A stretch of DNA of 64,000 nt from Azolla caroliniana (lineage: Eukaryota > Plantae > Polypodiophyta), in NCBI GenBank assembly GCA_043228905.1, contig JBHGNT010000021.1:4464001-4528000 (forward strand), in the 5' to 3' direction. Of this stretch, positions 9,947 to 59,900 are shown piece after piece. The notes under the pieces were generated by a model. That model had not been told where the DNA came from. It did no database searches and saw only the letters and a program-made list of their open reading frames with translations. The position numbers were made by a program, and so were the translations under genes. Numbering within the stretch: the first letter of the stretch is position 1; each line of letters opens with the position of its first letter.

Positions 9947-9993
9947 TTAATTTGGTGAACCCAACGTGAATCAAGGCAGTAGAAGAGTTGAGG

Positions 9994-20615: not shown

Positions 20616-20840
20616 GATGAGGAGTACCCGGCTACGGAGAGCCGGATGGTGCAGGCCCGGTGTGAACCGGATGAGGAGTACCCGGTTACGGAGAACCGGA
20701 TGGTACAGGCCCGGTGAGAACCGGAAGAGGAGTACCCGGCTACGGAGAGCCGGATGGAGCAGACCCGGTATGAACCGGATGAGGAGCACCCGGCTACGGA
20801 GAGCCGGATGACGCAGATCCAGTGAGAACCGGAGGAAGAG
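20616..20840 (+). repeat. 54-bp tandem repeat (~4 copies) in H U3, also at ~25511-25735
   Basis: Unit GATGAGGAGTACCCGGCTACGGAGAGCCGGATGGTGCAGGCCCGGTGTGAACCG. Confidence 0.9.
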
Positions 20841-21332
20841 ACATATTCGTAAATATGTTTCTGAGTGCCCATCGAGGCTATATTTGTAAATAGCCGAAAA
20901 GTCATATTAGTATAAATATGACTTAGGGCAAACTTTTTTAGTGTTGTTGATGTTGTCATTCTTGTTGGAAAAAGTATAGCGAGAGCACGTAACTGTGTAC
21001 AGAGAGAGAGAGAGAGAGAGAAAGAGGTCGTTGCCTTTGTTGTAACCGCCGCCTGTGGTGAAGATCTGTGAGCACGAGGTCGTTGCCTCAGTGAACTCAC
21101 GGTTGTACATTCTTACATAGTGACAGTTTGCAGCCTGTGGGCTGCCGTGGTTTTTCCCCTAGTTTGGGGTTTTCCACGTAAACTTCCTGTGTACCTTTTT
21201 CTCTCCTTTGCGTCGCGTGTTTTTTCGTTTCCTGTTTTCTGTGTATGAAAAGAATCTTGGTTGTGGCCGAGCGTCGTGGATAAGGAGCGTTGAGTTCCCG
21301 TCAAGTGGTATCAGAGCGAAACGACACAGAAA

Positions 21333-34360: not shown

Positions 34361-35239
34361 GCCACCATCTTCTTGGTTTTGTTTTATCTATTTATTTTAT
34401 TTATAAATTCTACAAATTCAATTTTGTAGTTGTACATTTGAGAAATTATAGAAATAGCCCTCATTTAGTTTTGACTCCCCCTTTTGACATAATTATATTT
34501 GTGTCCCGAGCAACATTAATCCTTCCGAAGCTTGTATCTTGGGCTCCTGAACTCCGATTCACGAACCGAAAATTTGCATATGCTCCTTGCCATAAGCTCC
34601 ATATGGGAAATTGCTTTCTATAGATTTTTGACATTGTTTTGACATCGTGAAGCAATAACTTCACGAAAACGCTTATCGAGCCGAGTGTCATAGACACACC
34701 AAGCGCAAACTAGGACGGAGCACAGATGATGGGGCTACGAGCAACGGATGAACTTGAACCTAGACGTGAGGAGGGTAGGAACTCTAGATGTTTTGAGCGA
34801 CACGAGGGCATGAAGACAAAAATAAAGATCAAGGCGACAAAGATGAGGTGAAACGAGAATACTAGATTGATGTGTCAATGACTGGTGTTGAATCCCTTGA
34901 GAGGGACCAAGGAGGTTACAAGTATTTATACTGTGAGTCGAAGAACATGCATTAGAATATTCGGGACAATATTCTAGAACCCTATAGAACCTTCTAGTTC
35001 TAGAACTTTCTAAAAACTCCTACAACTTGAAATAGATAATCCACTAATAATCTACTAAGATATACATAATATGACCATATATTTGGATGTGTTGGTTAGA
35101 ACACAACACTTGACTATATACAAGAGGTCAAGAGTTCAAATCTTGTCGTCATGTCTGTGACATTATGCTCCCCTTTATGACTACCTTTTCAAAAGTGTGG
35201 TGTAGGGGTGAGCTGAAAGAGAAAACCAAAGTATGTTGA

Positions 35240-36008
35240 GGTGTGAGTGACCATGACCAGTCCTCACCAGAAATAGGAGCACGGGTGAATGCGGGCAATC
35301 ATGTGTGGTCCTCATCGGATATGGGACACCAACGTGAGTGCAAGTGACCATGTGCGGTCCTCACCGGAGATTGGAACACCAACATGAGTGTGAGCGACCA
35401 TGTACGGTCCTCACCGGAGACTGGAACACCAACGTGAGTATGAGCGACCATTGTGCGGTCCTCACCGCAGATTGGAACACCAACATGAGTGAACGACCAT
35501 GTGTGGTCCTCACCAAAGACAAGAACACCAACGGGCATGAGCGACCATGTGCGGTCCTCATCGGCAACTGGAACACCAATGGACGTGAGTGACCATGTGC
35601 GGTCCTCACCGGAAACTGGAAAAGCAACGGACGTGAGCGACCATGTGCGGTCCTCATAGGAGACACGAACACCAACGGGCGTGAGCAACCATGTGCGGTC
35701 CTCATTGGAGACACGAACACCAACGAGCGTGAGCAATCATGTGTGGTTCTCACCGGGAACTGGACTACCAATGGGCGTGAGCGACCATGTGTGGTCTTCA
35801 CCGGAGACATGAACACCAACGGATGTGAGGGACCATGTGCGGCCCTCACTGGGAATTGGAACACCAACGAGCATGAGAGACCATGTACGGTCCTCACCGG
35901 AGATGTGAACACCAAAGGGCGTGAGCAACCATGTGCGGTCCTCACCGGAGACACGAACACCAATGGATGTGAGCGACCCTACACGGTCCTCATTGGGAAC
36001 TGGAACAC
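35240..36008. repeat. ~48-bp tandem minisatellite (~16 copies) inside K
   Basis: Unit approximately GACCATGTGCGGTCCTCACCGGAGACACGAACACCAACGGGCGTGAGC. Confidence 0.92.
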
Positions 36009-36059
36009 TTGATGACCATAACAACTAGGCAAAGTAGTGTTGATGACGACAACAAGAGG

Positions 36060-36440
36060 GTTGAAGATGATGATGTCGAAGACGAAGAAATGAAGGCAAT
36101 GATGTTGATGAAGCGACTTTGGAAGCAACGACTTTGACTATGGTAATGATGGAAGCGGAGAAAGAGATGAAAAGGATAAGAAACATAGTGATCGAGATGT
36201 TGAAGTTCTGAAGAAACACAAAGACACATATACAAAGGATGATGTCGAAGATGAAGCAATGAAGTCGAAGATGATGATGTCGAAGACGAAGCAATGAAGG
36301 CAATGATGTTGACGAAGCGACATTGACTATGGCAATGATGGAAGCGGAGAAAGAGATGAAGAGGATAAGAAACATAGAGATTGAGATGTTCCGGTTCTGA
36401 AGAAACACAAAGACACATATACAAAGGATGATAGAAAACA
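36060..36440. repeat. ~190-bp purine-rich duplication inside K
   Basis: GATGATGTCGAAGACGAAG...GAAACACAAAGACACATATACAAAGGATG occurs twice. Confidence 0.75.
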
Positions 36441-37238
36441 CAAAGATAGGGATGAAGGTGATAGGAAACATAGAGAAAGCGACGAAGATAATAAGAAACA
36501 CATAGAGATGAAAACGGTAGGAAACACAAGGAGAAGGATAACAATGACAAAAAATGCAAGATAGGGATGTGGAAGATGATAAGAAGTACAGAGGTAGAGA
36601 TGATAATGAGAAGAAACTAGGAGATAGATATGTGAAGGATGAGAAAACGAAGGGATGTTGATGATGGTAACTCTAGAACCAATGACGGTGACGATGGTAA
36701 CTCTAGAAGCAAGGGCGATGACGAAGATGGGTAATGCTTCTAGTTGGCAAGGGATTCAAACTGTCACGGACACACCCAACGCGGACTAGGACGGAGCATA
36801 GATGATAGGGCTATGAGCGACATATGAACTTGGAGCTAGACGTGACGAGGCTAGGAACTCTACATGTTCGGAGCGACATGAGGGCATGAAGATAGAAATA
36901 AAGATCAAGGCGACAAAGATGAGGCGCAACGCGAATACTAGATTGATGTGTCAATGACTGGTGTTGAATCCCTTGAAAGGGACCAAGGAGGTTACAAGTA
37001 TTTATATTGTGAGTTGAAGTACATGCATTAGAATATTCGAGAGAATATTCTAGAACCCTCTAGAACCTTCTAGTTCTAGAACTTTCTAAAAACTCCTAGA
37101 ACTTGAAACAGATAATCTACTAATAATCTACTAAGATATACATAACATGACCATATATTTGGATGTGTTGGTTAGAACACAACACTTGACTATATACAAG
37201 AGGTCAAGAGTTCAAATCTTGTTGTGATGTCTGTGACA

Positions 37239-40073: not shown

Positions 40074-42410
40074 TGTCATGCATTCGTGAACATTATGTTG
40101 CTTCACTTGGGCTTGAACCCAAGACCTTATAATACATAATCAAGAACCTAACCATTAAGATAGCATATGATTATATAAAATAATAAAAGCTACTTCTTAT
40201 AATAGATTGATATTGTAAATGTTCTAGAACATTCTAGAACATTCTAGAATATCCTAGAAAATCTTAGAATATCCTAGGTCTAGCACATTCTAGAACATTA
40301 TAGAAATCACTAGGTTATTTTATAGGAACCTATAAATATGGACATACAATTCTTCTCAAAACCAATTCAAATCAACACTAGTCTTAAGCTCTCACCACCT
40401 ATCTTGTGTCCATTCTTATTCTACTTTAATACATTCATTCTTCTCTTATCATTTCATTCCTCTTCTTGTGATTTCTTTATATCTTTCTTCTATCACTTTA
40501 CCTTCTCTCTTGGTTCTGATAGTTGCTTGCTCCCATGCTGCATAGTCGACGTTGTCGCGGTAATCCGCGAGTCTGTGTCGAAAGGGGCAGGACCACGGGG
40601 ATCTCAAACGAGGAAGTGATGGATGCCAGGAGACCGACCCTCTCCGGTCCCGGCTGCACCGGTTGTGGCGCAAACCGGAATGACTTCGGACGCGTATCGG
40701 AGGCTATCGAACACGAGAGAGGGAGAGAGAGAGAATACTTGCAACACCGACTCAACGCACGCTACTTATGTACAGGAAAGGAAAGAAGAAACTCTGAAGA
40801 TGCCGACACAGACACAGATGCACAAAACTTTATTATATACGTACAAGAATAAGATACAACTCCGGCTTCGAGCCGGACCAAAGTAGGTTAGGTTACAACA
40901 ACAGTGTGCTGCCAAGCTGCCAATCAGGGAGCTCTCGGGCTCGTCGCGCCGAGCGGGGTCTTGCACAAGAGACAGGGTAGAAGCCTAAACCCCTTTAGAC
41001 ATACGAGCTCCTAACCAGACTAAACCCTAAACAGACTCGAAGAAGAAGACCTCAAAGAAATTCTAAAGTAAGAAGAAGAAGAACTAACACACCTTCGACC
41101 TAAGTGGTATAACCTCCTAACTCAAAATGGGCAACCCCTCTACAAGGGACCCCTCCCTTCCTTTTATAGCCCAAGGAGGGAGGGATGTTACAATGTGGGA
41201 TAAATTCTCCCCCTTATTCTATACACCATTTTCCTACTATACATGTGTGCACATGTTGCACACTGCTGACTTGCCCATTCCATCCCGGTTTCACACCAAA
41301 GCCATAAATCTTCACTACATCCACCCCCACCAAACCGCACATCCACCGGCATGTGCCATGAAAGGAAAAGGTGAGAGATTTTGGCGATAGTGATCAACCG
41401 GGTTCTCCGCTGTCCTGGCACCTGACCGCCCTGCTGGCTCCTACCGACCCCGATCCGTCGACTCCATTCGATCTGCCATATCCGATGCTCACACCTTCTT
41501 CCCCGATTGGTCCTCCCGAACACCGTTGCGGATCTGGTCGCTCCTCCTTTGTATGCTGCATATGCCCTCCGATTAGGCCCCCGATCACTCCGGATGTTCG
41601 CCGGATTCCGCGCCTCGCGTGTATCCCTCCTTTGGTTCGACCGTCTCCTCGTCCCGAGCACCTCGGTGTGCCGTCTCTCTCCGTTCTGCGCTTGTCTTTT
41701 GTAGGCTCTTCCCATGCGTCGATGTCGTCCTCTAAATACGCGCTTGTTCTTCGGTCCTTAGGTGACCCCATTACGCGCTCCTTGTTTTTCCCTTGCTCAC
41801 CGTGCTCTCCTACGGTAGAGTGTACTGTTGTCGTGAAGAAAACCGGCCATAGGCGGAATTGGAGAAAAAGGCGCATGAACCGGCTCTTAAATAGACGGAC
41901 GCGAGAATTGATATTTTGGACATAATTCATAATTAGGTCGGCTGATGTAAATAGTAGGTAGTACACATTTATTAGCGGATTTGTGCGTATCTCTATCGAA
42001 AGGGAGTGGGAATAAAGCAATTTGACTAGGGAAGAAGGGTCTCCCCTTGGCGAACTATTTAAGGAGGGAGAGAAGGAAGAAAAGGGATCGCGCGTTGGCG
42101 AGGACGAAGTGCTGTTGAAGAACCGAGGACCGAGCTATCTCTCCTCCGATTGTCGTTCTCTGTGGGTGTCGAGAGTTCACTGCCTCTGCTTCGTGGACAG
42201 CCCGTGTGCTTCCAGCAGAGGCTCTCCCCCCCCCCCCCCCCCCCTCTTCTTTTTGGTTTCTTCGAGTCGAGTGGTTGTCGCCTGTGTGCGTGAGTAGGAC
42301 CCCGTGTCAGGTGCATTACCGGTTTGCCGGTTGTAACTGTTCGAGTTGTAAGCTACTGATTATAGTAATCGGATTCCTATTTCTTGCCCTTTTTTTGTCT
42401 GTGTATCTGC

Positions 42411-42453
<43 letters not shown>

Positions 42454-42556
42454 TGGTCCAAAACCCCCGTGGTCCCGCCTCTTCCTACACGCGAACGCTA
42501 ATCTTCACGACATAATTGGTGAACCCGACGTGAACAGGCGGCAAAGGAGTCAGAAG

Positions 42557-44349
42557 ATGAGGGGATCAGAGCTAACAGAGGCAATGGCGGTAGCCGTCGA
42601 CCGGCTGGTGAGCGCTCGCGAGGGGACGAGTACCCTCGACAGAGCCATTGAATCTATCTTCGGCAACATAGGCCGATTCGGTGGGAAGAATCCCACAAGT
42701 TCGGCGGCTGTCCGGATTCCATCGGGTGGTGACGCCGAGCATCCACGCGGAGGTGTTGGGCGGATGCCAGACTTGGGAGGAGTTCGAGTTGCAGGTCCTC
42801 GAGAAGTATGGGTTTGATGACTCTCTTTGGCTGTCGAGGCGGGACTTCATGGCATGGGTGGAAAGCCTCGGAAAAGGGAGGAACACGTCGGCGCTCCTCC
42901 AGGAGTTCGAAAAACGATTCGCGCGGCTGTCGACGTTGGACCGGACCATGCTCGAAACGAGTCGAGTACTACTGTTTGTCAAGTCAGTGGACGCGCTCGA
43001 CAGGGAAAAGGTGGGTCCCCTATTGGAGACGGATGAAGGGCTCACGGCAGACTGGGCCGTGGTAAAACAGGTCTGCAGCCGTTTCGACAAACGACACGAG
43101 TGGAGTGACGGAAGCTTGTCGGAGTCAGGACCGGTCCCGGCGAGGAGGCTCGAGGAGCTGGTATCGGTGCCAACCGGTAGGAAGGAAGAGACCCGAATTT
43201 GGCTGGAGTCAGGGTCGGCATTGAACGACGTGGTCAAAGGCCCATCCGGAGGAGCGGCTCTGGAGGAGCTGACACAGATGGTGCGCGACCTGCAGATCGC
43301 ACAGGCCCGGAGAGACATCGGCGAACAACCTCGCGACCGGAGGCCACCGGCTGGGCACCGGTGCATGTGGTGTGACGCGATTGGTCACATTCGGAAGGAT
43401 TGCACGGATTTCGCCGACGCACTCAGGACCAACGTGGTGTACCTCTGGAACGGGCGGGTGCACGCGAACGAGACCCGAAGAGCCCTAGAATTGAATACGG
43501 GGCGCGGCAGAATGAAGAGGTTGATGGAAGAGGCTGCGACATGGCCTGTAGAAGCCGTTAACTACTTAGTGTCGGCGGGAATTCGGGTCGGGGGTGATGA
43601 GACCCGGAAGGTGAAGGACTCCGGATTCTGGCCGCTAGTGCTAGAAGGCCTCTCCGGAGTTCGGCTGAAGAAGGAAGAGGCGGACCGCACGGAATAGCGG
43701 GTCCAGGAGGTCACCAGATGGGACGATCCAGTCGAAGAGAAAACGGGCTTCGTAGAAGCCTCTTGCCAGAACTACGAGGTTCTGATGGAAGACAAACGGG
43801 CAGGGAAGGTCGGAGGGCTTGGTCCCCCGCAAAGGTACGAGACCCGGTTCGGACCGAAGGTGACCAGTGCCGTCAACCCAGGCGTGCCAGATGGGAAGAA
43901 GCAGGCGGGGTTTCGGTTGAGCTCCGAAATCGAGAGAGAAACGGACCTACGGAAGGTCCTTGAAGAGCAGATCCTCGACAGTAAAGTGGAGTTGTCGTTG
44001 CGGGAGGTGCTGGGAATCGCCAAGAGGGAGTTCCACGACTCCATCGTAGACTTGGTGAAGCGGAAGAGGCTCTCAACGGAGCCGGAACCGGAGAAGCCGG
44101 TGGAGGTGCGGACTACGTACTTAGAAGACACGGCCCTAGAAGACGAGTTGGCGGAAAGCCACTACGCGAAGCCGCATTGGGCCAGGGCAACTACGGAAAC
44201 CCCTGTGCGGATCGGCGACGTTCTGGAACTAGTGGTGGCCTTGGTAGACCATGGATCCGAAATCAACCTGATGTCCATGGATTTCTACAAGAAGGGTAAA
44301 ATGGCCGATCAACACCAAGCATGGGTGGAAGATACTCGTGGCGACGCGT
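42557..44349 (+). pseudogene. gag: D gag and N-half of protease
   Basis: CMWCDAIGHIRKDC knuckle and ALVDHGSEINL. Confidence 0.88.
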
Positions 44350-47300
44350 TGTCGCGTTGTTACGCGCGTGCGTGGAGAAGGGCGGGACCACGGGGGTCTT
44401 GGACTAAGGAGAAGGGGAGAAGGAATAGGACTTCGGAATGGAGCTTAGCACAAGAAGAGAAAGAATGAACAAGAGGGAGATGGAGGCCAAATGCTCAACA
44501 AGATATATTAGAACCGAAAACCGATTACAAAATGGCGGCCGCGTAGGCCGCACCAAACGACTATGATAAACCCAAAACCCTAATCCGACGAAGAAGGAAA
44601 GAAACCCTAACTAAGGAACCCGAAACCCTAAAACGAAATGGTATACCTCACTCACACTCAAAATAAGGCAACCCCCACAATGGTGCTCTTCCTCTCCCTT
44701 TATAGCACAAGGAGGGAAGACCGTTACATAAAGGTGCTACAAAATATCCCCTTTCAATCAATGGGGATATTTCCCTTGATTTTAGGGGAGGTGGGAAGGA
44801 TGGGTCTTAACTCCCATCTCTACACGAACTACTATGTACCTATCTCTCTCTCTCTCACGTGGATGTGCGCGCAAAAGCACATCACCTTTACACTTTACAA
44901 ATCCTAAGGTGCATTTCTAGCACCATACTTATCACTATCGATAAATAGAAATACAACATGGTGATGTGCAACGTTGCACATCGCGGGTTTGCTTGCTTCG
45001 CTCGGGTTTCCGCCTATGGACGAAAATCTTCACGACATCCGCCCCCACCTAACCGCACATCCACCGGTATGTGCCAAAAGGGGACAAAACGCGAGATTTT
45101 CGGCCAAGGCGGCCAACCGAGCCCTTGACAACCTCGTGGGCTTGCCCGGCTTTGTCTTCCACTTCGAGCAAGTCCACCCCGTCCACACGAACCACCGTCG
45201 CCTTCCGGCCCACCATCTCCACCGAATGGTCTCGAACCGTCGGCTCCATCCGATCCGCCACACTTGACAACGTTCGCCGAGTCGTTGCCTCCACCCGATC
45301 CGCCACGTCCATCGTGATTCTTTGAACCACCGTCTACATCCGGACCGCCGTTTCCGATGCCCGCGCCTTCTTCCCCGATCGGTCCTCCCGAACGCCGTTG
45401 CCGACCCGGTTGCTCTTCTTTTGTCCGCCTCGTATAGCCTCCGGATGCTCTCCCGATCTCTCCGGTTGCACGCCGGATTCCGCCTTTCCCGTGCTTGCCG
45501 TGCTCTCTCGCCGTAGAGCATACCATCGTTCCCGTGCTCGTTGCTTGGCCCTCATGCGGCCGCATTGCACGTTTCGCATTCCGCTCCTCTTCGCGTACCC
45601 TTTCGGAAAGGTACCTTTCTTCCCCGACCTCCGTTTCGCTCGGAGGAACACCCTCTTGGCCCTCTTGGTCCGCTCGACCGCACACATCCTTCGTGATGTC
45701 GTGTTCGTTCTTTTGGGCGCATACATCTTCGTTCTCCGCGACCTCCCGTATGCCTCTCTCGGTGCCTTCATCCGTTGTGGCCTTCGTCCCCTCGCCGCCA
45801 CCGTCCGCCACTCTTGGTCTCACGTCGGCACTCGCGCCGACCGCCGGAGTCTCTATAGCCGGTGTGGAGGATCCCTCTCGGGCCTTATCTTCGTGGCCGC
45901 CGGTCTTAGCCTCTCCGTAGGCCACCTCTTCCCACCAATCTTCCCTAGCATCGTGCCAGGTCTTGTCGTCGCCGCCTTCCTCCTCGTATTCGCCTCTCGA
46001 AGGCGTGATCCGACCGTCATCTTCGGTCGCTCGATGTGGCTCCTTCGTAGGCATGCTTGTGTCTTGGCCCTCCATCGGCCGTATTGCATGCATCTCGTCT
46101 CGCTCTTCCGCCGTAGATCCGACCTCCGTGTCGGTCTTCTCCTCCTTTGTCGCCGTAGCCCGTTCCGACACGGGCTCGCCGTCTTGGACCCACCCGTCCA
46201 CCATCTCGTACCGGATATCCGTTCCGGTAACCTCGTACGCTCCGGCCTCCGACTCCTCGCCGCCACCCGCCGTCTCTCCGGTCTTATGTTGATCCGCAAC
46301 CGCCGTAGTCTCTAGAGTGGGTATGGAGGGTCTCGTTTGTTTCCGTTTTTCCCCCGAACCATGGTCGTCGTGCCCGGTTAGCCTCCATCTCGCGCTTACC
46401 GGCTCCCATCGTAACCGTAACCGCAACCGTAACCGGCCAATCGGTCTAGCCGGCTTCCTTCGGTTTGGGCCCGGTTCGCCGGCCCTTACTCTCTTCCTCT
46501 TCCGTGCCGTATTCCGGTCGGGTCGGTTCCCGACTCTCTCCTCGTTTCCGCTCCGGTCCTCTCCGTCGGACCCACCGTATACGCCCATTCCGGGCCCCGC
46601 ATACTCGTCTTCGTATGCGCTCTCTCCGGGCCTCACCCTCTCACGGTCACCGCCCATCTCTCCGGTCTCACGTTGGCATTCGAGCACAACCGCCGAAGTC
46701 TCCGGCCCCGGTGTCAAGGGGTCTTGCCTCCGTCCGCTCCAATCTTCCTTCTCGTTTCCGTTGCCCGCCTTGCCGCCGTCACCTCCCGTCGCACTAAGCC
46801 TTATGCCGGCACTCGGTCCGGCCATTGGAGCCTCTAGGATTGGTGTGGGTAAGGACCCGGCACCGCCGCTTGTTGTCTCCGTAGCCGCTTTCGTTCGGAC
46901 GTCGTTGTCCGCGGCTCCCCCATCTCCGATTCCGTAAGCCTCTAGTATGCTTGCCACCACCTCTTCTTCGCCGTTCTCCGCGTCATTTTGTTTGCCCGCC
47001 TTGCCGCCACCACCGCCCGTCGTTCTAGGTCTCGTGCCGGCACTCGGGCCGACCGCCGAAGCCTCTAGGGCCGGTGTGTGGAAGGTCGCGGCACCACCGC
47101 TCGCCTCCTCTCCGCTCGATGTTTTGGGCCGCCGTGCCCCGAATCTTCCGCCCACTTTCGAAGTGGCGCTCTCCGCTTTGTAGTCACCGGCCTCATCCTT
47201 GGCCGTCCATTCGCCGCAAGACGAGAGGGTTGCTCGCTCCGCACCCTCTCCCATGTCGTCGTCGTTTCGGTTGCCCCCCTTGCCGCCGCCACCGTCCGTC

Positions 47301-49940
47301 ACTCTAGGCCTTTCGCCGGCTCTCGGGCCGGGTGCCGGAGTCTCTAGGACCGGTGTGTGGAAGGTCGCGACACCATCACTCCTCTCGTCCGTAGCCACCT
47401 CCATTCGGACATCGTCGTCCGTGGCTACCCCGTCTTCGGTTTCGCAAGCATCGAGTATGCTTGCCGCCGCCTCTTCTTCGCCGGTCTCGTCCTCATTTCG
47501 GTTGTCCGCCTTGCCGCCGCCACCGTCCGTAGCTCTAGGTCTCGTGCCGGCACTCGGGCCGACCGCCGAAGCCTCTAGGGCCGGTGTGTGGAAGGTCGCG
47601 ACACCGACGCTCGTCTCCTCTTCCTCCTCCATTTCGCAAGCCTCGAGTATGCTCGCGAAATCCTCGTAGAACGTTTCGTGCAACCGCGTCCCGAAACTTC
47701 CGCCCACTCTCGAAGTGGCGTCCATCGCTCCGTAGATATCGGCCTCGTCCATGGCCGCTCTTTTTCCCCGAGATGAGAGGGTCGCTTGCTCCGCACCTTC
47801 TCTCGTGTCGACGCCGTGGTCGCCCGCCTTGCCACCGCCACCGCCTTTCACCATAGGTCTTACGCGGGCACTCGGGCCGGCCGCCGTGATCTCTAGGAAT
47901 GACGCGTGTAAGGTCGCGGGACCGCCGCTCGTCGATGTAATGTCCGTAGCCACCTCCGCTCGGACGTCGTTGTCCGTGGCTACCCCGCCTCCGTATATGC
48001 AAGCATCGGTTATGCTTGCCGCCGCCTCTTCCGCGGTCTCCTTACCGTTGTCTCGGTTGCCCGCCTTGCCGCCACCACCGTTCTTCTCCCTCGGTCTTAC
48101 GCGGGCGCTCGGGCCGGCCGCCGTGGTCTCTTGAACCGGTGCGTGGAAGGTTGCGGTACCGCCGCTTGTCTCCTCCGTACTCGATGATTCGGGCCACCGT
48201 GTCCCGAATCCGCCATGTCCGCTCGAATAGGCGATCGCCGCCTCACCGTCCCCGACCTCGTCCCCGGTCGTTCTTTTCCCCCATGTCGAGAGGGCGGTTC
48301 GCTCCGCACCCTCTCCCGTGGTACCGATGTACCATTCTCTTTCGGCCTCCGCATAGGCCCCGTCCTCCATGTGTGAGGAAGCTCCTTCCTCCGCGTCCTC
48401 CGATCCGCTCGGGCCCGACCCCGCAATAAGCCATTCTTCGGCTTCGATTTTCGCCATTACGAGCCCGCACGCCTCCCGTATTAGCGCTTGTAGGTCGAGC
48501 CCCTCCAAACCGGTTCGCGATGAGCTCTCGTCCGGCAGCATGGCGTAGTCGGTCGTCGCTCTCTCTTCTCCCCCGCTCGCGGGCCGTGTTGTGTCCGACC
48601 GCCTCGCCTCATGTTGCCGACACACCCATTCCACTTCGGGCCACTCCTCGGTGAGACCATGCGCCCCATAATCGTCTTGAAGCTGGAACATGATGTCCGT
48701 CCTCTCCTCATGATGGACCGTCTCCAAAAATAGGAGGACTTTGTCCGCCCCCACCGATCTTCGTTCCCACTCCGAGAGTTGAGAGAAACGACGCTCGAAC
48801 TCTCGGAATGCCTCTATTGCGCTCCGATGGCGCCTCGCCGACGCCACCCACCGATCGAACTCTCGCCGACCTCTTACCTCCGATTCCGCGCACCCGTATG
48901 CCTCCATTAGAGCCCCTTCAAAGGACTCCCACGATTCGTGAGCTTCTTGGAGCTCCTTGACCTCCTCGTACTTTGATGCGGCCGCCGCTCGACGAAAGAA
49001 CTCTAGCCTCGTCGCCTCGTCCACGCCCATCCTCGTCATTTCCGCATCGTAGGCTCTCAAAAATTTTGGGACCTCCTTCCCATCGAACCGGCCGACTAGA
49101 CGGACCACCCTTTCGACCGCTTGTTGAGCCGCCTCTCGCCTCGCCCTCTTCCGTCCGGCGTCCATCAAGATCTTTGTCATCATTTCCTCGAAGTCGAAGC
49201 CTTCCTCCATCTCTTTCTCCCTTGCCGCCTTTCACGTCGGGTTCACCAAAGATGTCGCGTTGTTACGCGCGTGCGTGGAGAAGGGCGGGACCACGGGGGT
49301 CTTGGACTAAGGAGAAGGGGAGAAGGAATAGGACTTCGGAATGGAGCTTAGCACAAGAAGAGAAAGAATGAACAAGAGGGAGATGGAGGCCAAATGCTCA
49401 ACAAGATATATTAGAACCGAAAACCGATTACAAAATGGCGGCCGCGTAGGCCGCACCAAACGACTATGATAAACCCAAAACCCTAATCCGACGAAGAAGG
49501 AAAGAAACCCTAACTAAGGAACCCGAAACCCTAAAACGAAATGGTATACCTCACTCACACTCAAAATAAGGCAACCCCCACAATGGTGCTCTTCCTCTCC
49601 CTTTATAGCACAAGGAGGGAAGACCGTTACATAAAGGTGCTACAAAATATCCCCTTTCAATCAATGGGGATATTTCCCTTGATTTTAGGGGAGGTGGGAA
49701 GGATGGGTCTTAACTCCCATCTCTACACGAACTACTATGTACCTATCTCTCTCTCTCTCACGTGGATGTGCGCGCAAAAGCACATCACCTTTACACTTTA
49801 CAAATCCTAAGGTGCATTTCTAGCACCATACTTATCACTATCGATAAATAGAAATACAACATGGTGATGTGCAACGTTGCACATCGTGGGTTTGCTTGCT
49901 TCGCTCGGGTTTCCGCCTATGGACGAAAATCTTCACGACA
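44350..49940 (-). mobile_element. Element E: young non-autonomous gag-only LTR retrotransposon (TR-GAG-like)
   Basis: 688-bp LTRs 44350-45037 and 49253-49940 (one difference seen), perfect TSD GCGT, Trp PBS 49231-49248, PPT near 45038-45050, no PR/RT/IN. Confidence 0.95.
45014..49210 (-). CDS. 1398-aa Gag-capsid-like N-terminus fused to a ~1150-aa acidic/Gly-rich repetitive tail
   Basis: Intact ORF with ATG about 20 nt past the PBS. Its N-terminus (VGRFDGKEVPKFLRAYDAEM...EFERRFSQLS...KVLLF...GLTEEW..V) aligns by eye to the D/I gag (IGRFGGKDATSYLEAYRVEM...EFEKRFAQLS...RVLLF...GLTTDW..V). Confidence 0.9.
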   Translation of the reverse strand: MEEGFDFEEMMTKILMDAGRKRARREAAQQAVERVVRLVGRFDGKEVPKFLRAYDAEMTRMGVDEATRLEFFRRAAAASKYEEVKELQEAHESWESFEGALMEAYGCAESEVRGRREFDRWVASARRHRSAIEAFREFERRFSQLSEWERRSVGADKVLLFLETVHHEERTDIMFQLQDDYGAHGLTEEWPEVEWVCRQHEARRSDTTRPASGGEERATTDYAMLPDESSSRTGLEGLDLQALIREACGLVMAKIEAEEWLIAGSGPSGSEDAEEGASSHMEDGAYAEAEREWYIGTTGEGAERTALSTWGKRTTGDEVGDGEAAIAYSSGHGGFGTRWPESSSTEETSGGTATFHAPVQETTAAGPSARVRPREKNGGGGKAGNRDNGKETAEEAAASITDACIYGGGVATDNDVRAEVATDITSTSGGPATLHASFLEITAAGPSARVRPMVKGGGGGKAGDHGVDTREGAEQATLSSRGKRAAMDEADIYGAMDATSRVGGSFGTRLHETFYEDFASILEACEMEEEEETSVGVATFHTPALEASAVGPSAGTRPRATDGGGGKADNRNEDETGEEEAAASILDACETEDGVATDDDVRMEVATDERSDGVATFHTPVLETPAPGPRAGERPRVTDGGGGKGGNRNDDDMGEGAERATLSSCGEWTAKDEAGDYKAESATSKVGGRFGARRPKTSSGEEASGGAATFHTPALEASAVGPSAGTRPRTTGGGGGKAGKQNDAENGEEEVVASILEAYGIGDGGAADNDVRTKAATETTSGGAGSLPTPILEAPMAGPSAGIRLSATGGDGGKAGNGNEKEDWSGRRQDPLTPGPETSAVVLECQRETGEMGGDRERVRPGESAYEDEYAGPGMGVYGGSDGEDRSGNEERVGNRPDRNTARKRKRVRAGEPGPNRRKPARPIGRLRLRLRLRWEPVSARWRLTGHDDHGSGEKRKQTRPSIPTLETTAVADQHKTGETAGGGEESEAGAYEVTGTDIRYEMVDGWVQDGEPVSERATATKEEKTDTEVGSTAEERDEMHAIRPMEGQDTSMPTKEPHRATEDDGRITPSRGEYEEEGGDDKTWHDAREDWWEEVAYGEAKTGGHEDKAREGSSTPAIETPAVGASADVRPRVADGGGEGTKATTDEGTERGIREVAENEDVCAQKNEHDITKDVCGRADQEGQEGVPPSETEVGEERYLSERVREEERNAKRAMRPHEGQATSTGTMVCSTAREHGKHGKGGIRRATGEIGRASGGYTRRTKEEQPGRQRRSGGPIGEEGAGIGNGGPDVDGGSKNHDGRGGSGGGNDSANVVKCGGSDGADGSRPFGGDGGPEGDGGSCGRGGLARSGRQSRASPRGCQGLGWPPWPKISRFVPFWHIPVDVRLGGGGCREDFRP

Positions 49941-52900
49941 GCGTGCTACGGAGGAGCTGCATGGTGCGTGCCCGAATGTACGCGTAAAGATCAGTGATGT
50001 CAAGATAAATCAACATTTCTTCGTGCAGGAAACATCCTCCCACCTGGTGATTCTTGATGAACCGTACATTACGGCAGCATGCATGGAGACGAAGGTGCTG
50101 GACAACGGTTCGACGTACGCGCGCGTCAAGAGCCAAGACGGTCAACATTCCGTCCAGTTCATGATCATACGTCCAAACCATGAGAGGAATCGTGAGACCC
50201 TCGGCGGCGACAACTGAGGGGATTTTTAGAGAGGGCTATCAAGGCGTGGGGCCGCCGTAGTCCGGACGTATCGGAAGAACCCCACACATGTACAATAGGT
50301 AGGAAGTTTTCGTTCTCCAAAAATGGAGGTTGTACTATAACCGGCGTCAGCGGCTGGGAGAGGAAGCGAGCGGAGGAGAGGCTTAGGGGATGCAGAGTCC
50401 TCTCCCCCGACGAAGAAATCAGCGGCGCCGTGGAGGCGGTCTCTTTTGACGACACCTTGGGCGAGTTGCGAAAGGTGATTGGTGAAGACCTTAGAGAAGA
50501 CCGGACCGTTCCGGTTAGTTCGATGGGAATGTACGAAGTCATCACGGACTTCGGGGAAAGGATCGGGTCGGATCGGACGGCCTGTGTGGATACAAAGTAC
50601 AAGACTATGGACTTGAAGGTGAGGCTAGTCGCGGCACCCTTGCCGGAGGGCAGCGAGGAGCGGATAAAAGGGGTCGCGTTGAACCCAAGTTTACGGAATC
50701 CGGCTGGCATAGGGCACCGGTTCACCGACATAACGCTATGGGAGCTCAAGGTCGATGGGGGTGGCTTTGTACTGCTGGCGGAGGAGGACAGGTTTCGGAG
50801 AATGCTTGGAAGGCATGGGAAAGCCTTCGCGTTCTCGCCGGAGGAGATCGGGTGTGTGGACCCGACGATCGTCGAACCGATGGTGTTCTTCACGGTACCG
50901 CATGTACCGTGGAATCTCAAACCGATTTGGGTGCCGAGAGCTCACATCCCGAAGTTGATGGAGCTTCTGAAGCAAAAGGTGGAGATGGGCATCCTTGAAC
51001 CATCGAGTGCCCCATATTCGAATCGGTGGTTTACACTGCCGAAGAAGAACAGCACGCTGCGCTTCATTCAGGACCTGCAACCGGTCAACAGGGTGACCAT
51101 CCGTAATGCAGGAATCAGACCGACCATAGACGAGTTCGCGGAGGCCTTCGCTAGAAGGTCGATCGATTCGGTCGGTGACTTATACTCGGGGTATGAGCAG
51201 TTCCAACTAGCCGTGGAGAGCAGGGATATCACGACGATGCGAACTCCTCTCGGCCTAGTATGGATGTGTACCCTACCACAAGGCGGGACGAATTCGGTGG
51301 CGCATATGGTGAACGCAATGAACAAGGTGCTGAGGGACTGCATCCCGGACATCACCATGCCATTCTTGGACGAAATCCCGATAAAGGGGTGTCCGGTGGA
51401 AGATGTGGACGAGACTGTCAGGCCAGACGGATGCCGAAGGTTTGTCGTGAACCACATCAACGACTGCGAGAAGGTGCTGCAGAGGCTCGAGAGCGCACGA
51501 CTCACCTTCTCCAGAGAAAAATTGGCGTTCGGGCAGTCGGAGATCCTGGTGGTCGGACACCTGTGTGGGCCTTAAGGTAGGAAACCGTCTCCGGCAAAGG
51601 TAGAGGCCATCTCCGCGATGAGGAACGATTGCGGGTCGGTTACGGAGGTCCGCAGATTCTTGGGTGCATGCGCGTTCTACCACATTTGGATCCCGCACTA
51701 TGCACATGTCGCGGAACCCCTCTACGGACTATTGAGAAAGGGGCGTAGCTTTGAGTGGAGGATGGAGCACACAGAGTCGGTCCGGAGACTAAAGGTTGCG
51801 CTTACGGTAGCGCTAGCTCTCCGTAAAGCGGCCATCTACGTGACGGTGGACACGAGCCCGACCGGGATCGGGTGGGTGATCAACCAGGAGGACGAGGATG
51901 GTGTACAGTTCCCGATCCGGTTCGGGGCGAAGGTATTGAGCGAGCGGCAGCGAGGATACGCCCAAGTCAAGCGCGAACTATGGGGTATCGTTTCAGCAGT
52001 CCAGGCCGACAGGGACTACCTGATCGGGGCGGAGGTAATAATCGAGACGGACTGCCTGCCAATACTCGGCATGGTTTCCGGATGCGCGACGCCGGACCTA
52101 GCAATGCTCCGGTGGATAGCGTACATTAAGTCCCTGAACCCGGAGATACGACACATCTCCAAAAAGGATAACGCCATGGCTGACATGCTTTCGAGAGCGA
52201 GGTTCAACGACGAAGACGACATGGTTTCGGATGACGAAGAAGTCGGCGAGGACTTCTTCGGGTTGGCTAATGTGATGACGAGGAAAGGGGACACTCCAGC
52301 GCTTAACGAATTCGACGAAAGCAGGTACGACGGGGAGTGGCTCCAAATCGGGAGGTTCCTACAGGCGATGACGCCGGACGCAGCGTGGATGAGAGAAGAG
52401 GCGAGCTGGGTACGGAAGAAGGCGTACCGATTCTTCCTACGGGAAGGGTGCATATCGAGGCACCCAAAGAAAAGAATGGCATCCCACTTCGAGTAGTGGT
52501 AAAGAAAGAAGAACAAGAGGAAATACTAGCGGCATTTCACGAGATTCCCTCGGCCGGGGCTGTACCGGGATGTGCATCGGTTCGTAACGACTTGTGAAAG
52601 TTGTCAGATGCACTCCGTAGTCTGACATCGGGACGAGCTACACCCGACCTACCCGCCTACGGTCCATTTCAAGTGGATGGTAGACTTGGTGACGATGCCG
52701 ATGGGAGTAGGACAGATGCGATTCCTGGTGCTTGCGCGGGAAGACTTAACGAACCAGGTGGAAGGCCGTGCACTGCTGAACAAGACAACCGCGGTTGTAT
52801 ACCGGTTCCTGATTGAAGAGGTAGTGTGTCGGTACGGTGCAATGGGAGTATCGTGGCAGATCGGGGAGAGCTGGATGCGCAAGAAGCTGAGGAGTTGTTC

Positions 52901-53617
52901 GACCGGCTAGGGGTCAAACTCTCCCTCACTACGGCGTACAATCCAGAGGCGAACGAAAAGGTAAAACGTGGGCACGGGCCGATCGTAATGGCGTTGGTGC
53001 GTGCATGCGGAGGGCAGGTCGGGAATTGGCCGCGGCTCCTTCCTTACGCACTATGGGCGGACTGAACTATGCACAGTTCGGTGACAAGGTTTATGCCGGC
53101 AGAGCTGATGTATGGACAGAAGCCGATCATGCCGGTGGAACAGACGGTTTCTTCGTGGGCGGCGGTAGATTGGAAGGACGAGATGAGCCGGGAGGAGTTG
53201 CTGGCGGCGCGGATTCGGCAACTCGAGCGGAGGCCGGAGGACATGAAACGGGCGAAGGAAAAGTTGCGGGTGGCAAGGGAGCGGAACAAGACCTGGTTCA
53301 ACCGGACGCACCGGTTGTGCCCCAAGAAGGTTGAGGAAGGTGACTGGGTCTTGGTATACGACAACAACCTCGACAATAAGCACAAGGCGGTGCGCAAGTT
53401 TGCTAGGAGATGGTTCGGGCCCTACACGGTGACGAGCGCGAACGACAATGACACGTACCACCTCGCGGAACTCGACGGGACATGGTTAGCGGTACCGGTG
53501 GCCGGGAAGCGGATCAAAGCGTTCAAGAAGCGGTTCGGAGACGAGCCGGAGCCGGCGAGCAAGAGCGACGAAGACGATCGGTTCGGGCCCGGCGAAGAAT
53601 CGGAGACCGACAAGTGA
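49941..53617 (+). pseudogene. pol: D protease C-half, RT, RNase H and integrase
   Basis: RATEELHGACP resumes after E. DLYSGYEQF, FLDEI (mutated), VTVDTS, KWMVDLV and WFGPY motifs. Confidence 0.9.
50220..50285 (+). promoter_or_regulatory. Putative -1 ribosomal frameshift signal between PR and RT (also 12023-12090 +, 16207-16272 -, 33913-33957 -)
   Basis: GGATTTT-TAG followed about 6 nt later by a conserved stem. RT is in the -1 frame in D and I. Confidence 0.7.
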
Positions 53618-54280
53618 AGCCGGTTTTCTTCGGTATCTACCCGTCTTTGGCGCATGCCGGTGGATGCGCGGTTTGGTGGGGGTGGATGTCGTGAAGAAAA
53701 CCGGCCATAGGCGGAATCGGAGAAAAAGGCGCATGAACCGGCTCTTACATAGGCGGATGCGAGAATTGATATTTTGGACATAATTCAAAATTAGGTCGGC
53801 AGATGTAAATACTAGGTAGTACACATTTATTAGGGGATTTGTGCGTATCTCTGTCAAAAGGGACAAGGAATAAAGCGATTTGACTAGGGAAGAAGGGTCT
53901 CCCCTTGGCGAACTATTTAAGGAGGGAGAGAAGGAAGAAAGGGATTGCATGTTGGCGAGGACGAAGTGCTGCTGCAGAACCGAGGGCCGAGCTCTCTCAC
54001 CTCCGATCATCGTTCTCTGTGGGGGTGTCGGGAGTTCGCTGCCTCTGCTTCGTGGACAGCCCCGTGTGCTTCCAGCAGAGGCTCTCTCCTCCCCGCCCCC
54101 CCCCCCCCCCCCCCCTTTTTTTTTGTCTCTTCGAGTCAAGTGGCTCTCGTCTATGTGCATGAGTAGGACCCCATGTCAAGTCCATTACCGGTTTGCCGGT
54201 TGTAACTATTCGAGTTGTAAGCTACTGATTATAGTAATCGGATTCCTGTTTCTTGCTCTTTTTTCTGTCTGTGTATTTGC

Positions 54281-54315
<35 letters not shown>

Positions 54316-55669
54316 TGGTCCAAGACCCTCGTGGTCCCGCCACTTCCTACACGCGAACGCGAAACTTCGCGACACCGTCATCCCGACCTTTGTATCGGGG
54401 TCCTTCACAGCTCTCGTTATTGCTTTATCCCGACTCGCGCCCTCTTGGGCCATTTGGCCTCGCACGTCCTCCGGGACCCCACGTTTTCTCTTCCTGGTGC
54501 GTAGCCCTTTGCTCTCTGTGCACCATCCTCCGCAATCTCGACAACTCACCGCCCCGCCTTCCATCCCATGCTTGCCTCTCAAAGGCTCGACGGGACCGCC
54601 ATCACCGGTCACTCGTTGCCGCTCTTCTGAGTGCATGCTTGTTTCTTAACCCTTCGCAGGCCGTAGTGCATGCTCCGTTTCATGCCCTTCACTCGCCGTA
54701 GTCCCAACCTTCGCATCAGCCTCTTCTTCCTTCGTCCTCGTAGTCCTTTCTGGCTTCGTTTGGCCCTCTTGACCCCACTCGTCCGTCTTTCCGCACCGGA
54801 TACCCGTTTCTGTAACCTTGTCCGCCCCGGCCTCTGACTGCTCACCGCCACCCGCTGTCTCTCCGGTCTTACATTGATCTGCAACCGCAGAAGCCTTTAG
54901 AATAGGTGTGGAGGGTTCCTCTTGTTTCCGGCCTTCCTCCGGACCGTAGTCGTTGCACCTACTTGGCCTCCTCGTGCTCACCTTGGTTACTCGTTGCCTC
55001 TATTGCTACGGACTTTGTCCCGTCATCGCCACCGTCAGTATCTTGGTCTTATGTCAGCTCCCGACGCCAAACGCCGAAGTCTCTAGATCCGGTGTGGAGG
55101 ATCCGTTAGGCCACCGACTCATGCACCAAGCGTCTCCGGTCTTTGTCCTGTTGACTTTGCCGATCGGGTCCGATTCTGGTTCGTGGCCGTGTCCCTAGCC
55201 TTATACCTCCTTCCGCTCCTTTTTGGCCCTTCTGCTTGATCTCGTTCACCTGTCGCCACCGTCCTTCTGTCCAGGTCTCATGCCGGCTCTCGCGCCAACC
55301 GCCAGAGTCTCTAGATCGGTGTGAGGATTGCCCACCCGCACTTCCTTTGCCCTCGTCCCCTCGCCGCCACCGTTAGTCTCTTGGTCTTATGTCGGCTCCG
55401 CTACCGACTGCCGAAGTCTCTAGATCCGGTGTGAAGGATCCTCCTTGGGCCTCTTGTTTTTCGACCCTATCCCCGGTGTTCCTTCTCTGCATGTCGAGAG
55501 GGTGGCTCGCTCCACACCCTCTCCCGTGGTACCGATGTACCATGTTCCGGACTCTTCGTAGGCCTGTTTCCTCCCCCCTTCCGGATCGGTTATCCGAAAG
55601 TCCGCTCTCCCGGTTCTCATTCGGGTCTGTCTGTCACTTTGCATTGCTAGGTCCCGTTCTACTACCGCC

Positions 55670-56949: not shown

Positions 56950-59900
56950 TGTAAGAAATAGACACTTCGATTCACCTTCTTCCTTTCGGCCACAACCGAG
57001 TAATCGTGGATCAATGCAACAGAAAATAGAAACCAAAAGAGAGAAACACACGAGTACACAGGGATTAACGTGGAAAACCCTAGATGGGAAAAACCACGGG
57101 AGTACAAGACTCCAAACAACACTATACAAGAGAAGTATACAATGACGAGCTCCAAGGCGACGACCTTGAGCTCGCTGTCCTCGCCACAGGCGGCGGAAAT
57201 ACACAGAGGCGTCGTCCTCTTCCTCTCTCGCGCTCTATCTCTCTCTCTCTCACGGCTGCTCCCTCTTCGCTCCTCTTAAGTGGAAAAACAGAAAAATGAT
57301 AAGCAACGGTAAAACTGTTTGCCCTAAGTCATATATATACTTATATGACTTTGGGCTATTTACAACTGTAGCCACATGGGCCCATAGGAAACATATTCAC
57401 GGATATGTCCCTGCATCCGGATCGCTCTCCGGGTACATTCGTCATCCGGTACCGAAACCGAAACCGGTACCGTCCCATCCGGATCCGACCATCCCATTCG
57501 AAGGGACCGTAATCCCAACAAACTCCCCCTTCACTTCGGCATGGGATGTCTCTCCAATCCGATCCTCTTCCGGCATGCTTCCAGCTTGTCGGGTGTGAGC
57601 ACCTTGGTCAGCATATCCGACCCGTTCTCGTCCGTGTGGATCTTCGTCAGCACGAACTCCTTGTCTTCTATCCTTTCCCGGATCCAGTGATATCTTCGCT
57701 GGATGTGCTTCGTCCGGGAGTGATAGGCCGCGTTCTTTGCAAGGTGGATTGCACTCTGACTGTCGCAGTAGAGTCGGTACTCCTTCTGCCGGATACCGAG
57801 CTCTCCAATGAAGTCCTTCATCCATATTATTTCCTTGCCGGCTTCAACAGCTGCCATGTACTCCGCCTCCGTGGTTGACAACGCAACCGTCTTCTGCAGC
57901 CTCGACTGCCACGAAACAGCTCCCCCTGCATACGTCATCACATACCCTGATGTGGACCGGCTGGTATCTGCATCAGCCGACATATCCGAATCGGTGAAAC
58001 CGTCGAGTTCGGGTTTACCGGAGCCGAATCGGAGGCACACGTTTGCCGTGCCCTTCAGGTATCGGAGTATCCACTTGACCGCGTTCCAATGCTCTTTGCC
58101 GGGATTGCTCATGTACCGGCTCACCACTCCGACTGCATATCCGATGTCCGGTCTCGTACACACCATGGCGTACATCAAGCTCCCGACGGCTGAGGCATAC
58201 GGCACTTTCATCATATCCTCCTTTTCAGCCTTTGTCTTGGGACTTTGCTTGCTGGACAGCTTGCAGTTTGTCGGGAGGGTCGATCCGACCGGTCTTGCTT
58301 CCGACATGTTGAACCGGTGAAGCACCTTCGTCACGTACTTCTCCTGTGACAGCCACAACTGCTTCTTGCTCCGGTCCCGGATGATGTGCATCCCTAGTAT
58401 TTGTCTCGCCGGACCCAGGTCCTTCATTGAGAAGGTTCGGTGAAGAGCCTTCTTCAGCATCCGGATCTTGACCTGGTCCCGTCCGACGATCAACATGTCG
58501 TCCACGTACAGGAGGAGTATTAGAAAGTCTCCTCCTTCGAACTTCTTCACAAACACGCAGTGGTCGGACTGCGTTTTGAGGTACCCTTCGTCGGTCATGA
58601 AGGAGTCGAACTTCCGGTACCATTGCCGGGGAGCCTGCTTCAGTCCGTAAAGGCTCTTCTTCAGCCGGCATACCAGGTGCTCCTTCCCTTTCTTCTCGAA
58701 TCCTTCCGGTTGCTGCATGTAGATCTCTTCTTCGAGGTCACCGTGAAGGAATGCCGTCTTCACGTCCATCTGTTCTACCTCGAGGTCCATGCTTGCCGCT
58801 ATGCTCAGCACCGTCCGGATGGAGGTCATCTTCACCACCGGGGCAAATATCTCGTCGAAGTCGACGCCCTTCTTCTGCTGAAACCCCTTCACCACGATCC
58901 TGGCTTTGTATCTCGGGGGGTTTCCGGCATCTCCCGGTTTCAGCTTGAACACCCACTTGTTTCGAAGTGCCCGCTTTTCTTTCGGCAACTCCACAAGTTC
59001 ATATGTGTGGTTCTCATGCAGGGAATCCATCTCGTCCTGCATGGCACTCAACCACCTGCGGCTCTGAGTGTCATGTTTTGCTTCTTCAAAGCTCTCCGGC
59101 TCCCCCTCGTCGGTTAGCAGCACGTGCTCTGGTTCCGGAAATCTCCGGGGGGCCCTTCTCTCTCTTAGAGGATATCTCCGTTCCGGAGTTTCGGTAATCG
59201 GTTCTTCCGATTCTTCTTCATCCGAATCCATTTCGGGATCGGGGCCGGTTCCGGTATCATTTTCATCTTCTTCGGTCGGTTCGGTTTCTTCACCGTCTTC
59301 GGCCGGATCCTCGAGTGCTAACCGGTCCCTTGCCGGTCGGGACTGCTCCTCGTAGAGTTGATCCTCACCGGTCGACTTGGAGCTCTTCATCTTCTTCTCC
59401 GACTCCCAGTCGGCGAGTGTCTTGTCCTCCATGAAGATGATGTCTCGACTCCTGAATATCTTCTTGTCGACCGGGTCCCATACTCGGTAGCCGAACTCGT
59501 CGTCGCCGTAACCGAGGAATATGCATGGCGGGGTCTTTGGATCTAGCTTCCCTCTCCGGTCCTTTGCCACATGCACGTATGCGAGACACCCGAACACCTT
59601 CAGATGCCGGTAGGATACTTCCCTACCGGTCCACACTCTCTGCGGCGTGTCTCCGTCCAAAGGTACTGAGGGTGATCGGTTTATCACATATGTCGCCGTC
59701 GACATTGCCTCAGCCCAAAACCCCTTGGGTAATTTCGCATGCGCCAGCATACTCCGAACCCTCTCCATTATGGTCCGGTTCATCCTCTCGGCCAGCCCGT
59801 TCAGTTCCGGCGTCTTCGGCACAGTAAACTCGAGTCGGATTCCCTTCGAGCGACAGTACTCCTGGAACTGCCCCCGGTATTCCCCTCCGTTATCCGCTCG

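Follow-up and report, generated by a model that had tools for sequence, protein, structure and literature searches.

What does a long terminal repeat (LTR) retrotransposon without pol do with its one open reading frame (ORF) of 1398 amino acids (aa)? The question is raised by element E, which lies in a stretch of 64,000 nucleotides (nt) from Azolla caroliniana (contig JBHGNT010000021.1, positions 4,464,001 to 4,528,000; here, the window, whose numbering is used throughout). An earlier note, made from the letters of this DNA, described E as young and non-autonomous, with near-identical LTRs and a perfect target-site duplication (TSD). This description stands, and E is multi-copy: the two LTRs are separated by one transition across 688 bp (0.15% divergence), the TSD is a perfect 4-bp GCGT, and cluster members are ~98% identical. 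Our analysis shows that E is a young multi-copy member of a deep pol-less, non-autonomous lineage with traits like those of Phygy elements. In this lineage, the C-terminal lobe (C-lobe) of the predicted capsid is under purifying selection, and the long tail behind it is selected for staying open, not for its sequence.

A deep lineage of pol-less elements

The ORF of E runs from the ATG at 49210 to a stop at 45014-45016, 21-23 nt within the 3' LTR. Protease, reverse transcriptase (RT), RNase H, and integrase are missing from it, and a Pfam scan and motif check of its product found no Pfam match and no CCHC zinc knuckle, as the earlier note had read it. The resemblance of its N terminus to the Gags of four neighboring autonomous elements, also claimed there, amounts to 25-35% identity. 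For residues 33-207, the predicted fold is that of a retroelement capsid with two lobes. The AlphaFold2 model of residues 1-260 (76 sequences) has a predicted local distance difference test score (pLDDT) of 88, and the top 20 VIA-align rows for it are retroelement capsids throughout (best, dArc1; Z, 11.1; root mean square deviation [rmsd], 6.4; 158 residues aligned), which bears out the fold check proposed for this region. The top 10 Foldseek rows are capsids too, but none has an expect value of <=0.001; an atlas search with the E capsid returned Retrotrans_gag clusters (score, 0.92), and a PDB sequence search using the capsid alignment gave 0 matches. A match list made up of capsids only does not look like chance, although the Z values are modest for a helical protein. 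The putative helix behind the capsid (residues 240-259) has a counterpart in autonomous Gag, where a similar helix stands ahead of the zinc knuckle.

The remainder of the protein is the acidic, Gly-rich repeat tail that had been noticed before, with seven full repeat copies instead of the eight or nine counted then; the basic patch reported in it is located at residues 903-935. In a 622-aa relative, pLDDT is below 50 from residue 292 on, and the tail is predicted to be disordered. We rejected an origin of the tail from helper gag-pol, since no similarity was found between the two past the capsid.

Tail-bearing proteins from wider searches have ~340-1500 aa, many of them 600-720. Five cluster members of 1419 aa are ~98% identical to E through residue 1240 and stop just ahead of the polypurine tract (PPT), with a C terminus unlike that of E. 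The 600-720-aa relatives have the same layout at 50-61% capsid identity. All eight matches among proteins of 456-2000 aa bear a tail; thus, no near autonomous parent was sampled. In a tree that sets 21 tail-bearing capsids beside 20 others (near-duplicates excluded; a CCHC or protease motif was seen in just 16 of the 20 rows labeled autonomous), 20 of the 21 tail-bearing capsids form one clade with a support of 98/100. The E capsid is 50-71% identical to the six clade members tested and 28-36% identical to all seven autonomous Gags tested. Pfam gave no match above the cut-off for any of nine tail-bearing proteins, so such elements escape domain-based annotation. Among viral contigs, none of 134 pattern matches was confirmed.

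The capsid part varies within the lineage. The N-terminal lobe (N-lobe) has been lost by internal deletion in P0004, P0005, P0019, P0202, P0203, and the ORF of locus L002, and N-lobe loss with retention of the C-lobe is seen in at least two branches; P0200, P0201, and P0205 also begin within the capsid, perhaps as an effect of gene calling. Conversely, in P0209 and P0210 it is the C-lobe that is missing, and the N-lobe is retained. Two single cases stand apart: P0208, known from a single contig, joins the tail and tip of P0201 to a capsid outside the clade (a capsid swap or a chimera), and P0003 has an exact internal duplication that looks like a misassembly.

Selection on the C-lobe and on the open frame

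For selection analysis, we used the DNA of the 16 loci that were confirmed out of 183 pattern matches; they are collapsed metagenome contigs. The pairs are not independent, and intervals are from bootstrapping. The ratio of nonsynonymous to synonymous substitution rates (dN/dS) of the C-lobe is 0.28-0.70 in all 10 pairs, with an interval below 1 in five of them; between two N-lobe-less copies, L002 and L006, it is 0.36 (0.13-0.89). The C-lobe is thus under purifying selection. For the N-lobe, values of 0.58 and 0.87 were obtained, with both intervals covering 1.

The tail behaves differently from a domain selected for its sequence: its dN/dS is 0.54-1.20 over nine pairs (0.81-1.04 in a first pass), and the interval covers 1 in eight. 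The earlier note had held that tails broken by random stops or frameshifts in other young copies and evolving at a dN/dS of about 1 would make the open frame a product of youth and high GC content; the second half of this is what we found. An accident of this kind also agrees with the 0.15% divergence of the E LTRs, with neutral simulations in which 30-39% of tails remain open at 1% change, and with the existence of broken amplified forms. Nevertheless, youth and composition do not suffice. The longest open run in 400 trials with composition-matched random sequence was 813 codons, and the other five frames of E hold 20-36 stops each. The tails of L001, L002, and L005 (1213, 926, and 770 codons), from families 11-19% apart, have no stop in one and the same frame, against 6-25 in each of the others, and in simulation 10% of neutral change introduces 8-11 stops and leaves 0 of 300 runs stop-free. 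The layout shared with the 600-720-aa relatives points the same way. We therefore regard the accident as largely refuted and give it very little credence.

Reading frame is also respected in other measures. Frame-blind comparison of DNA blocks found it kept in 56 of 62, five of the six exceptions involving L011, a partly circular result because stretches of ORF were compared; offsets between self-repeats are divisible by 3 in 20/20 cases in E and 6/6 in L002 (cases that are not independent). The tail is thus selected for staying open, although this selection is not absolute, and the lineage exhibits selection for an open frame without selection for sequence across more than 1000 codons.

The C-terminal tip and its possible role

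One part of the tail is conserved, and it escaped the earlier note because it is out of frame in E. At the end of the family ORF stands a Trp/Arg-rich tip of the form RIWWIGW...WFxWKxWxxSKW, present in 16 of 26 non-redundant relatives, in which the ORF stops 5-79 residues beyond it. Among the 10 tip-less relatives, several are fragments or broken siblings of tip-bearing families, and none appears, by eye, to stop just ahead of the tip site. Between distant families, tips are 54-83% identical (a figure inflated by choosing the motif by pattern), C-lobes 51-73%, and the 120 residues preceding the tip mostly 22-40%. IGW is the best-kept portion and is triplicated in the E family; one branch (P0201, P0205, and P0208) acquired extra Trp residues. 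The autonomous (helper) elements have no tip, and searches of Pfam and the atlas gave no match and no usable match, respectively. In the 622-aa relative, the tip is modeled as a low-confidence helix. We rejected the conserved TYRWMCG that closes the family ORF as a motif of the protein; what it represents is the hairpin and PPT signal common to the helpers, where this signal is non-coding.

Set against L001, E lacks a net 97 bp near 45480-45495 and another 1 bp at 45083-84; therefore, the final ~158 residues of E come from a Gly-rich alternative frame, and the tip DNA is left unread. Thus, the intact ORF entering the 3' LTR, as first described, is open over 1398 aa, but it is frameshifted and misses the tip, and the family stops before the PPT; the entry into the LTR results from the frameshift near 45490. 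The extra base at 45083 is present in contigs from all four runs compared. Read-through into the LTR is also seen in the family frame (L002, L006, and P0017).

We propose, tentatively and at somewhat less than an even chance, that the protein is an adaptor made of capsid, tether, and tip, whose tail is kept open to reach the tip, and whose tip replaces the zinc knuckle and aids entry of the element's own RNA into particles with helper Pol. A protein would be made from E-type ORFs, and protease, RT, and integrase would come from intact Trp-primed relatives. The C-lobe would dock on particles while the basic-aromatic tip, standing in for the lost knuckle, binds RNA; the long tail would be a sequence-free tether, translated to reach the tip. 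The element protein would in this way link its own RNA to particles with helper-made Pol, with a benefit partly in cis, and tip-less copies, E included, may ride on intact siblings. A broader version seems doubtful to us: a Gag turned into a hijacking adaptor, with a capsid lobe (either of which can be lost) on a tether and a Trp/Arg module in place of the nucleocapsid, coupling RNA to the particles or Pol of distant helpers. If true, this would amount to a satellite strategy among LTR retrotransposons, stable while the capsid drifted to ~30% identity to its helpers and was swapped (P0208). Satellites of phages, to which the adaptor may be likened, encode capsid-hijacking proteins. There is a precedent for the tether in the disordered prion-like domain (PrLD) of Ty1 Gag, which is required yet swappable (PMC10002725); published work leaves open by what route Gag-only elements acquire the enzymes of a helper and whether the action of their Gag is in cis (PMC4350172, PMC8704663, and PMC13570524). 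Natural variants are at hand in the lineage: copies with the full capsid, with its C-lobe or its N-lobe alone, with tails of ~400-1200 aa, or without the tip.

Several observations weigh against this proposal. Docking on helper lattices is not obvious, judging from the sequences, because the E capsid is so distant from the autonomous Gags tested; since Ty1 restriction fails at 78.9% Gag identity, simple co-assembly with a ~30%-identical helper is doubtful. The dN/dS of the tip is 0.54-1.35, and all four intervals cover 1. Arg codons are of the form NGG in 67-78% of cases in the tip region and in 38-51% elsewhere in the tail, a pattern expected of an RNA-level GG signal. The second half of the tip is missing from the L002 ORF and from element F, an older relative in the window, whose repeat offsets are divisible by 3 in only 5 of 21 cases, the repeats being mostly out of frame. 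The junction at which E loses the tip recurs in contigs of runs X1 and X3 (in X3, a summed depth of 297, against ~1300-1400 for the element body), so E is a subvariant and not a private change. Among six high-coverage loci that include the tail, only three are fully open, with two stops in each of L006 and L003 and a frameshift in L011; stops or frameshifts also occur in seven of eight low-coverage loci. Protein matches are, moreover, biased toward open frames, and the loci are collapsed contigs. A modeled complex of the E C-lobe with the C-lobe of the L002 helper, with alignments unused, scored 0.22, against a mark of 0.34, and weighs on neither side.

Whether the tip is constrained as protein or as RNA is a matter of mixed evidence: the dN/dS intervals are wide and the Arg codons are skewed, yet synonymous divergence is not reduced in the tip (0.21-0.23, compared with 0.11-0.25 in the tail). 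If the RNA were what counts, only the capsid would matter as protein, and the rest would stay open so that ribosomes travel as far as the 3' end, which would spare the RNA nonsense-mediated decay (NMD) or silencing linked to stalling, the Trp stretch being a GG-rich RNA signal. A tail dN/dS of ~1 fits this, as do the NGG skew and the shifted frame of E, which is likewise open to the LTR in a form that recurs in other runs; in plants, the length of the 3' untranslated region is a determinant of NMD of RNA viruses (PMC5031192), and LTR elements carry quadruplex motifs at set places (PMC3902901). However, the helpers halt most ribosomes past Gag-protease, with ~3.5 kb of pol downstream; a long end without translation is thus tolerated by the clan already. 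Stops are concentrated beyond the tip and not before it, synonymous divergence in the tip is not reduced, the tip DNA shows no G4Hunter peak and no unusual fold, the helpers lack the Trp stretch, and retention of a 1-3.5-kb tail is left unexplained. We consider an explanation by RNA, the chief alternative to the adaptor, rather unlikely. Still less probable, in our view, is a protein whose tip meets a membrane surface (for nuclear or cell-to-cell movement) or Argonaute (to damp silencing). An Argonaute hook is defined by GW/WG pairs that are conserved, lie in a region of disorder, and bind Argonaute; most tips have one to four GW or WG pairs. The tip has strong interfacial hydrophobicity (best 15-mer, -7 to -11.5 on a Wimley-White scale) and no transmembrane segment, and the well-kept, triplicated IGW and the Trp gained in the P0201/P0205/P0208 branch could be taken in the same sense. 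Against this, neither P0208 nor the P0201 tip has a GW, and P0204 has GC, so the pair is not required; neither the atlas nor Pfam matched the tip, and a literature search found no retrotransposon Gag tied to a GW hook.

The earlier note had suggested interference with helper particles in the manner of Ty1 p22. A poison of helper particles, as Ty1 p22/p18 and Drt2 are, would hold down the copy number of the clan and would account for the branches that lack the N-lobe and keep the C-lobe, since the Ty1 restriction factors are formed by the C-lobe (PMC13709905; structure 9rxy is among our fold matches), and for the selection that persists on the C-lobe in N-lobe-less copies. Such poisoning needs a near-identical dimer face, though, and the E capsid, as given above, is 28-36% identical to the autonomous ones; Ty1 restriction is already lost between subfamilies with Gags 78.9% identical (PMC13709905, section 5.3). 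Near identity to a target was found with none of the seven autonomous Gags sampled, and a closer target may lie beyond that sample. In addition, these elements need the helper and are amplifying, and P0209 and P0210 keep the N-lobe without the C-lobe. Poisoning is accordingly an explanation in which we place little trust, and the p22-like part of the earlier note is not supported.

Setting of the element and comparison with known systems

Table 1. Features of element E and of the two elements around it, in window coordinates
Feature	Position	Strand	Remarks
Element E, whole	44350-49940	-	LTR element, 5591 bp
5' LTR of E	49253-49940	-	688 bp; TG...CA; TATA-like site at 49607
3' LTR of E	44350-45037	-	688 bp
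TSD of E, left copy	44346-44349	.	GCGT (NCGN)
TSD of E, right copy	49941-49944	.	GCGT
Primer-binding site (PBS)	49231-49248	-	18 nt; identical in E, D, and 7 of the fetched loci
Single ORF of E	45014-49210	-	1398 aa; final ~158 aa outside family frame
Predicted capsid N-lobe	48890-49114	-	aa 33-107; Arc N-lobe Z 9.0, rmsd 1.9, 69 aligned
Predicted capsid C-lobe	48590-48880	-	aa 111-207; PEG10 C-terminal domain Z 8.1, rmsd 2.5, 84 aligned
Predicted post-capsid helix	48434-48493	-	aa 240-259
Acidic Gly/Ala/Thr-rich tail	45794-48142	-	7 full repeat copies
Basic patch	46406-46504	-	aa 903-935; differs between families
Junction where E departs from family frame	45481-45494	-	present too in contigs of runs X1 and X3
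DNA of Trp/Arg-rich C-terminal motif	45150-45308	-	present but out of frame in E
Small hairpin and PPT	45038-45074	-	common to autonomous elements
Element D (gypsy of autonomous type, dead, interrupted by E)	41829-54374	+	LTRs 41829-42512 and 53687-54374
Element F (pol-less relative of E, older and decayed)	40553-64000	-	holds D and a young copia; 5' LTR extends past window

The window shows a nested order (40553-64000): pol-less E within helper-type D within the older pol-less F (Table 1). As had been stated, E interrupts the protease region of D. Its relation to D was otherwise misjudged: D had been named the likely helper, but its LTRs have diverged by 7.7%, compared with 0.15% for E, and it carries stops and frameshifts, so it is a landing site, long dead, and not a working helper. 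Only the clan of D can help, and dependence on Trp-primed elements of that clan is in keeping with the shared PBS and PPT. E, D, F, and L002 have in common the 18-nt PBS, the final 50-85 nt of the LTR, and the hairpin with the PPT; the body of the LTR is not shared. The claim of common PBS, LTR ends, and PPT in E and D is thus confirmed, with alignable LTR similarity confined to the final 53-73 nt. The PBS is probably that of tRNA-Trp. In the hairpin (20 nt, 45055-45074, directly before the PPT), all eight positions pair in each of eight helper and pol-less sequences (including L001, L002, L005, and L006); the only two-sided change is in D, a result reached by 55 of 500 shuffles, which makes it weak support.

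Flanking duplications are GCGT for E and CTGT/CCGT for D, with ACGT at the left flank of F. The insertion site of E matches the NCGN preference of Phygy, so no targeting of the helper is required. In contigs of two DNA runs, 44345 is connected directly to 49941 through four shared letters; D-family sites without the E insertion therefore exist. TR-GAG elements (see below) are transcribed; for E, no data set that contains it is recorded as RNA. Contigs of runs X1 and X19, which are only guessed to be RNA, lie along the interior of E and almost not at all on the D flanks; we did not count them as evidence of transcription. The Gag of F is 43-47% identical to that of E, with the same tail motifs, and its tail repeats are of ~110 nt and 187-190 nt, mostly out of frame.

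An intact Gag-protease and Pol element of the clan of D is present in L002. There (6478-7560), helper and N-lobe-less pol-less element are joined via one LTR, either as a true tandem or as an assembly artifact; we did not use this as proof of a partnership, because collapsed assembly may join sequences at the shared LTR end and PBS. Helper Gags contain DUF4100 (one relative is from Riccia sorocarpa), and the helper Pol P0021 has Pfam RT, RNase H, and integrase with no match to a chromodomain or an added RNase H, the absence of a match being weak evidence. In all four autonomous elements examined, protease is in frame with Gag, and Pol follows in the -1 frame past a GGATTTTT run (window 50217-50225, ~12022-12030, and ~16255-16265; L002 3139-3149), so that the likely frameshift of this clan separates protease from RT and not Gag from protease.

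The window also holds two further elements of autonomous type that share the PBS or have a related Gag (9697-19073), head to head at 14272-14273 and both cut in pol; another gypsy Gag-Pol on the plus strand (1346-5500) with 1296 open codons, CCHC, RT, RNase H, and integrase; and, within F on the minus strand, the young copia (56950-62204), whose ORF of 1374 codons is intact, whose 571-bp LTRs show one mismatch, and of which an older copy, 85% identical, lies at ~20594-26199. A tandem array of ~48-bp units, ~80% alike, occupies 35240-36060, with other short direct repeats beside it (34686-37238).

A literature search, with subscription journals mostly outside its coverage and supplements only for PMC6317226, found no description of this element type. 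In foamy virus Gag, with its GR boxes, and in the hepadnavirus core protein, with its Arg-rich end, a capsid protein without a knuckle uses a basic C terminus for nucleic acid. Both viruses are autonomous and have no long acidic tether, and their likeness to the tip of the E lineage is one of layout. With Ty1 p22/p18 and Drt2, the E lineage shares proteins containing only the capsid C-lobe, although E itself has both lobes; those factors are near-identical to their target and not mobile (PMC13709905), whereas the C-lobe of the E lineage is ~30% identical to the sampled helpers and is found in amplifying elements. The Ty1 PrLD is likewise a needed disordered region that tolerates foreign sequence (PMC10002725), but it is N-terminal, short, and prion-like in an autonomous element, whereas the E tail is C-terminal, acidic, and up to 1150 aa long.

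Phygy is a group of non-chromovirus Ty3/gypsy elements (Neumann et al. 2019, PMC6317226) with a 4-bp NCGN TSD in 100% of 186 elements, which the GCGT of E fits, and a tRNA-Trp PBS in 81%, to be compared with the conserved 18-nt PBS of E and D if its presumed Trp identity is correct. It is known from autonomous elements of 7.7-10 kb without an extra ORF, and the available parts of that paper mention no pol-less partner. The likeness of the E lineage to Phygy is one of TSD and PBS traits.

The closest parallel in structure is TR-GAG, the Gag-only LTR elements (Chaparro et al. 2015, PMC4350172), with a mobile copy in Arabidopsis (PMC8704663). E resembles them in its LTRs, PBS, PPT, one Gag ORF, lack of pol, RT, RNase H, and integrase, multiple copies, and recent mobility; their capsid domain is found in E by fold model and atlas Retrotrans_gag clusters, not by Pfam. 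TR-GAGs are generally below 4 kb, in a search range of 1-6 kb, and E, at 5591 bp, lies inside the wider range only; their TSD is 5 bp, that of E 4 bp. TR-GAG1 keeps its zinc finger and has no internal duplication in 433 aa, and AT5TE33540 encodes 562 aa, whereas the E lineage has no knuckle, an added tail of 400-1200 aa, and the Trp tip. Finally, TR-GAGs are thought to arise repeatedly from autonomous pools, while the E lineage is one deep clade distant from its helpers. The lineage is of more interest than the E copy itself, and it differs from known Gag-only elements in its tail, its tip, its missing knuckle, and its deep single origin.

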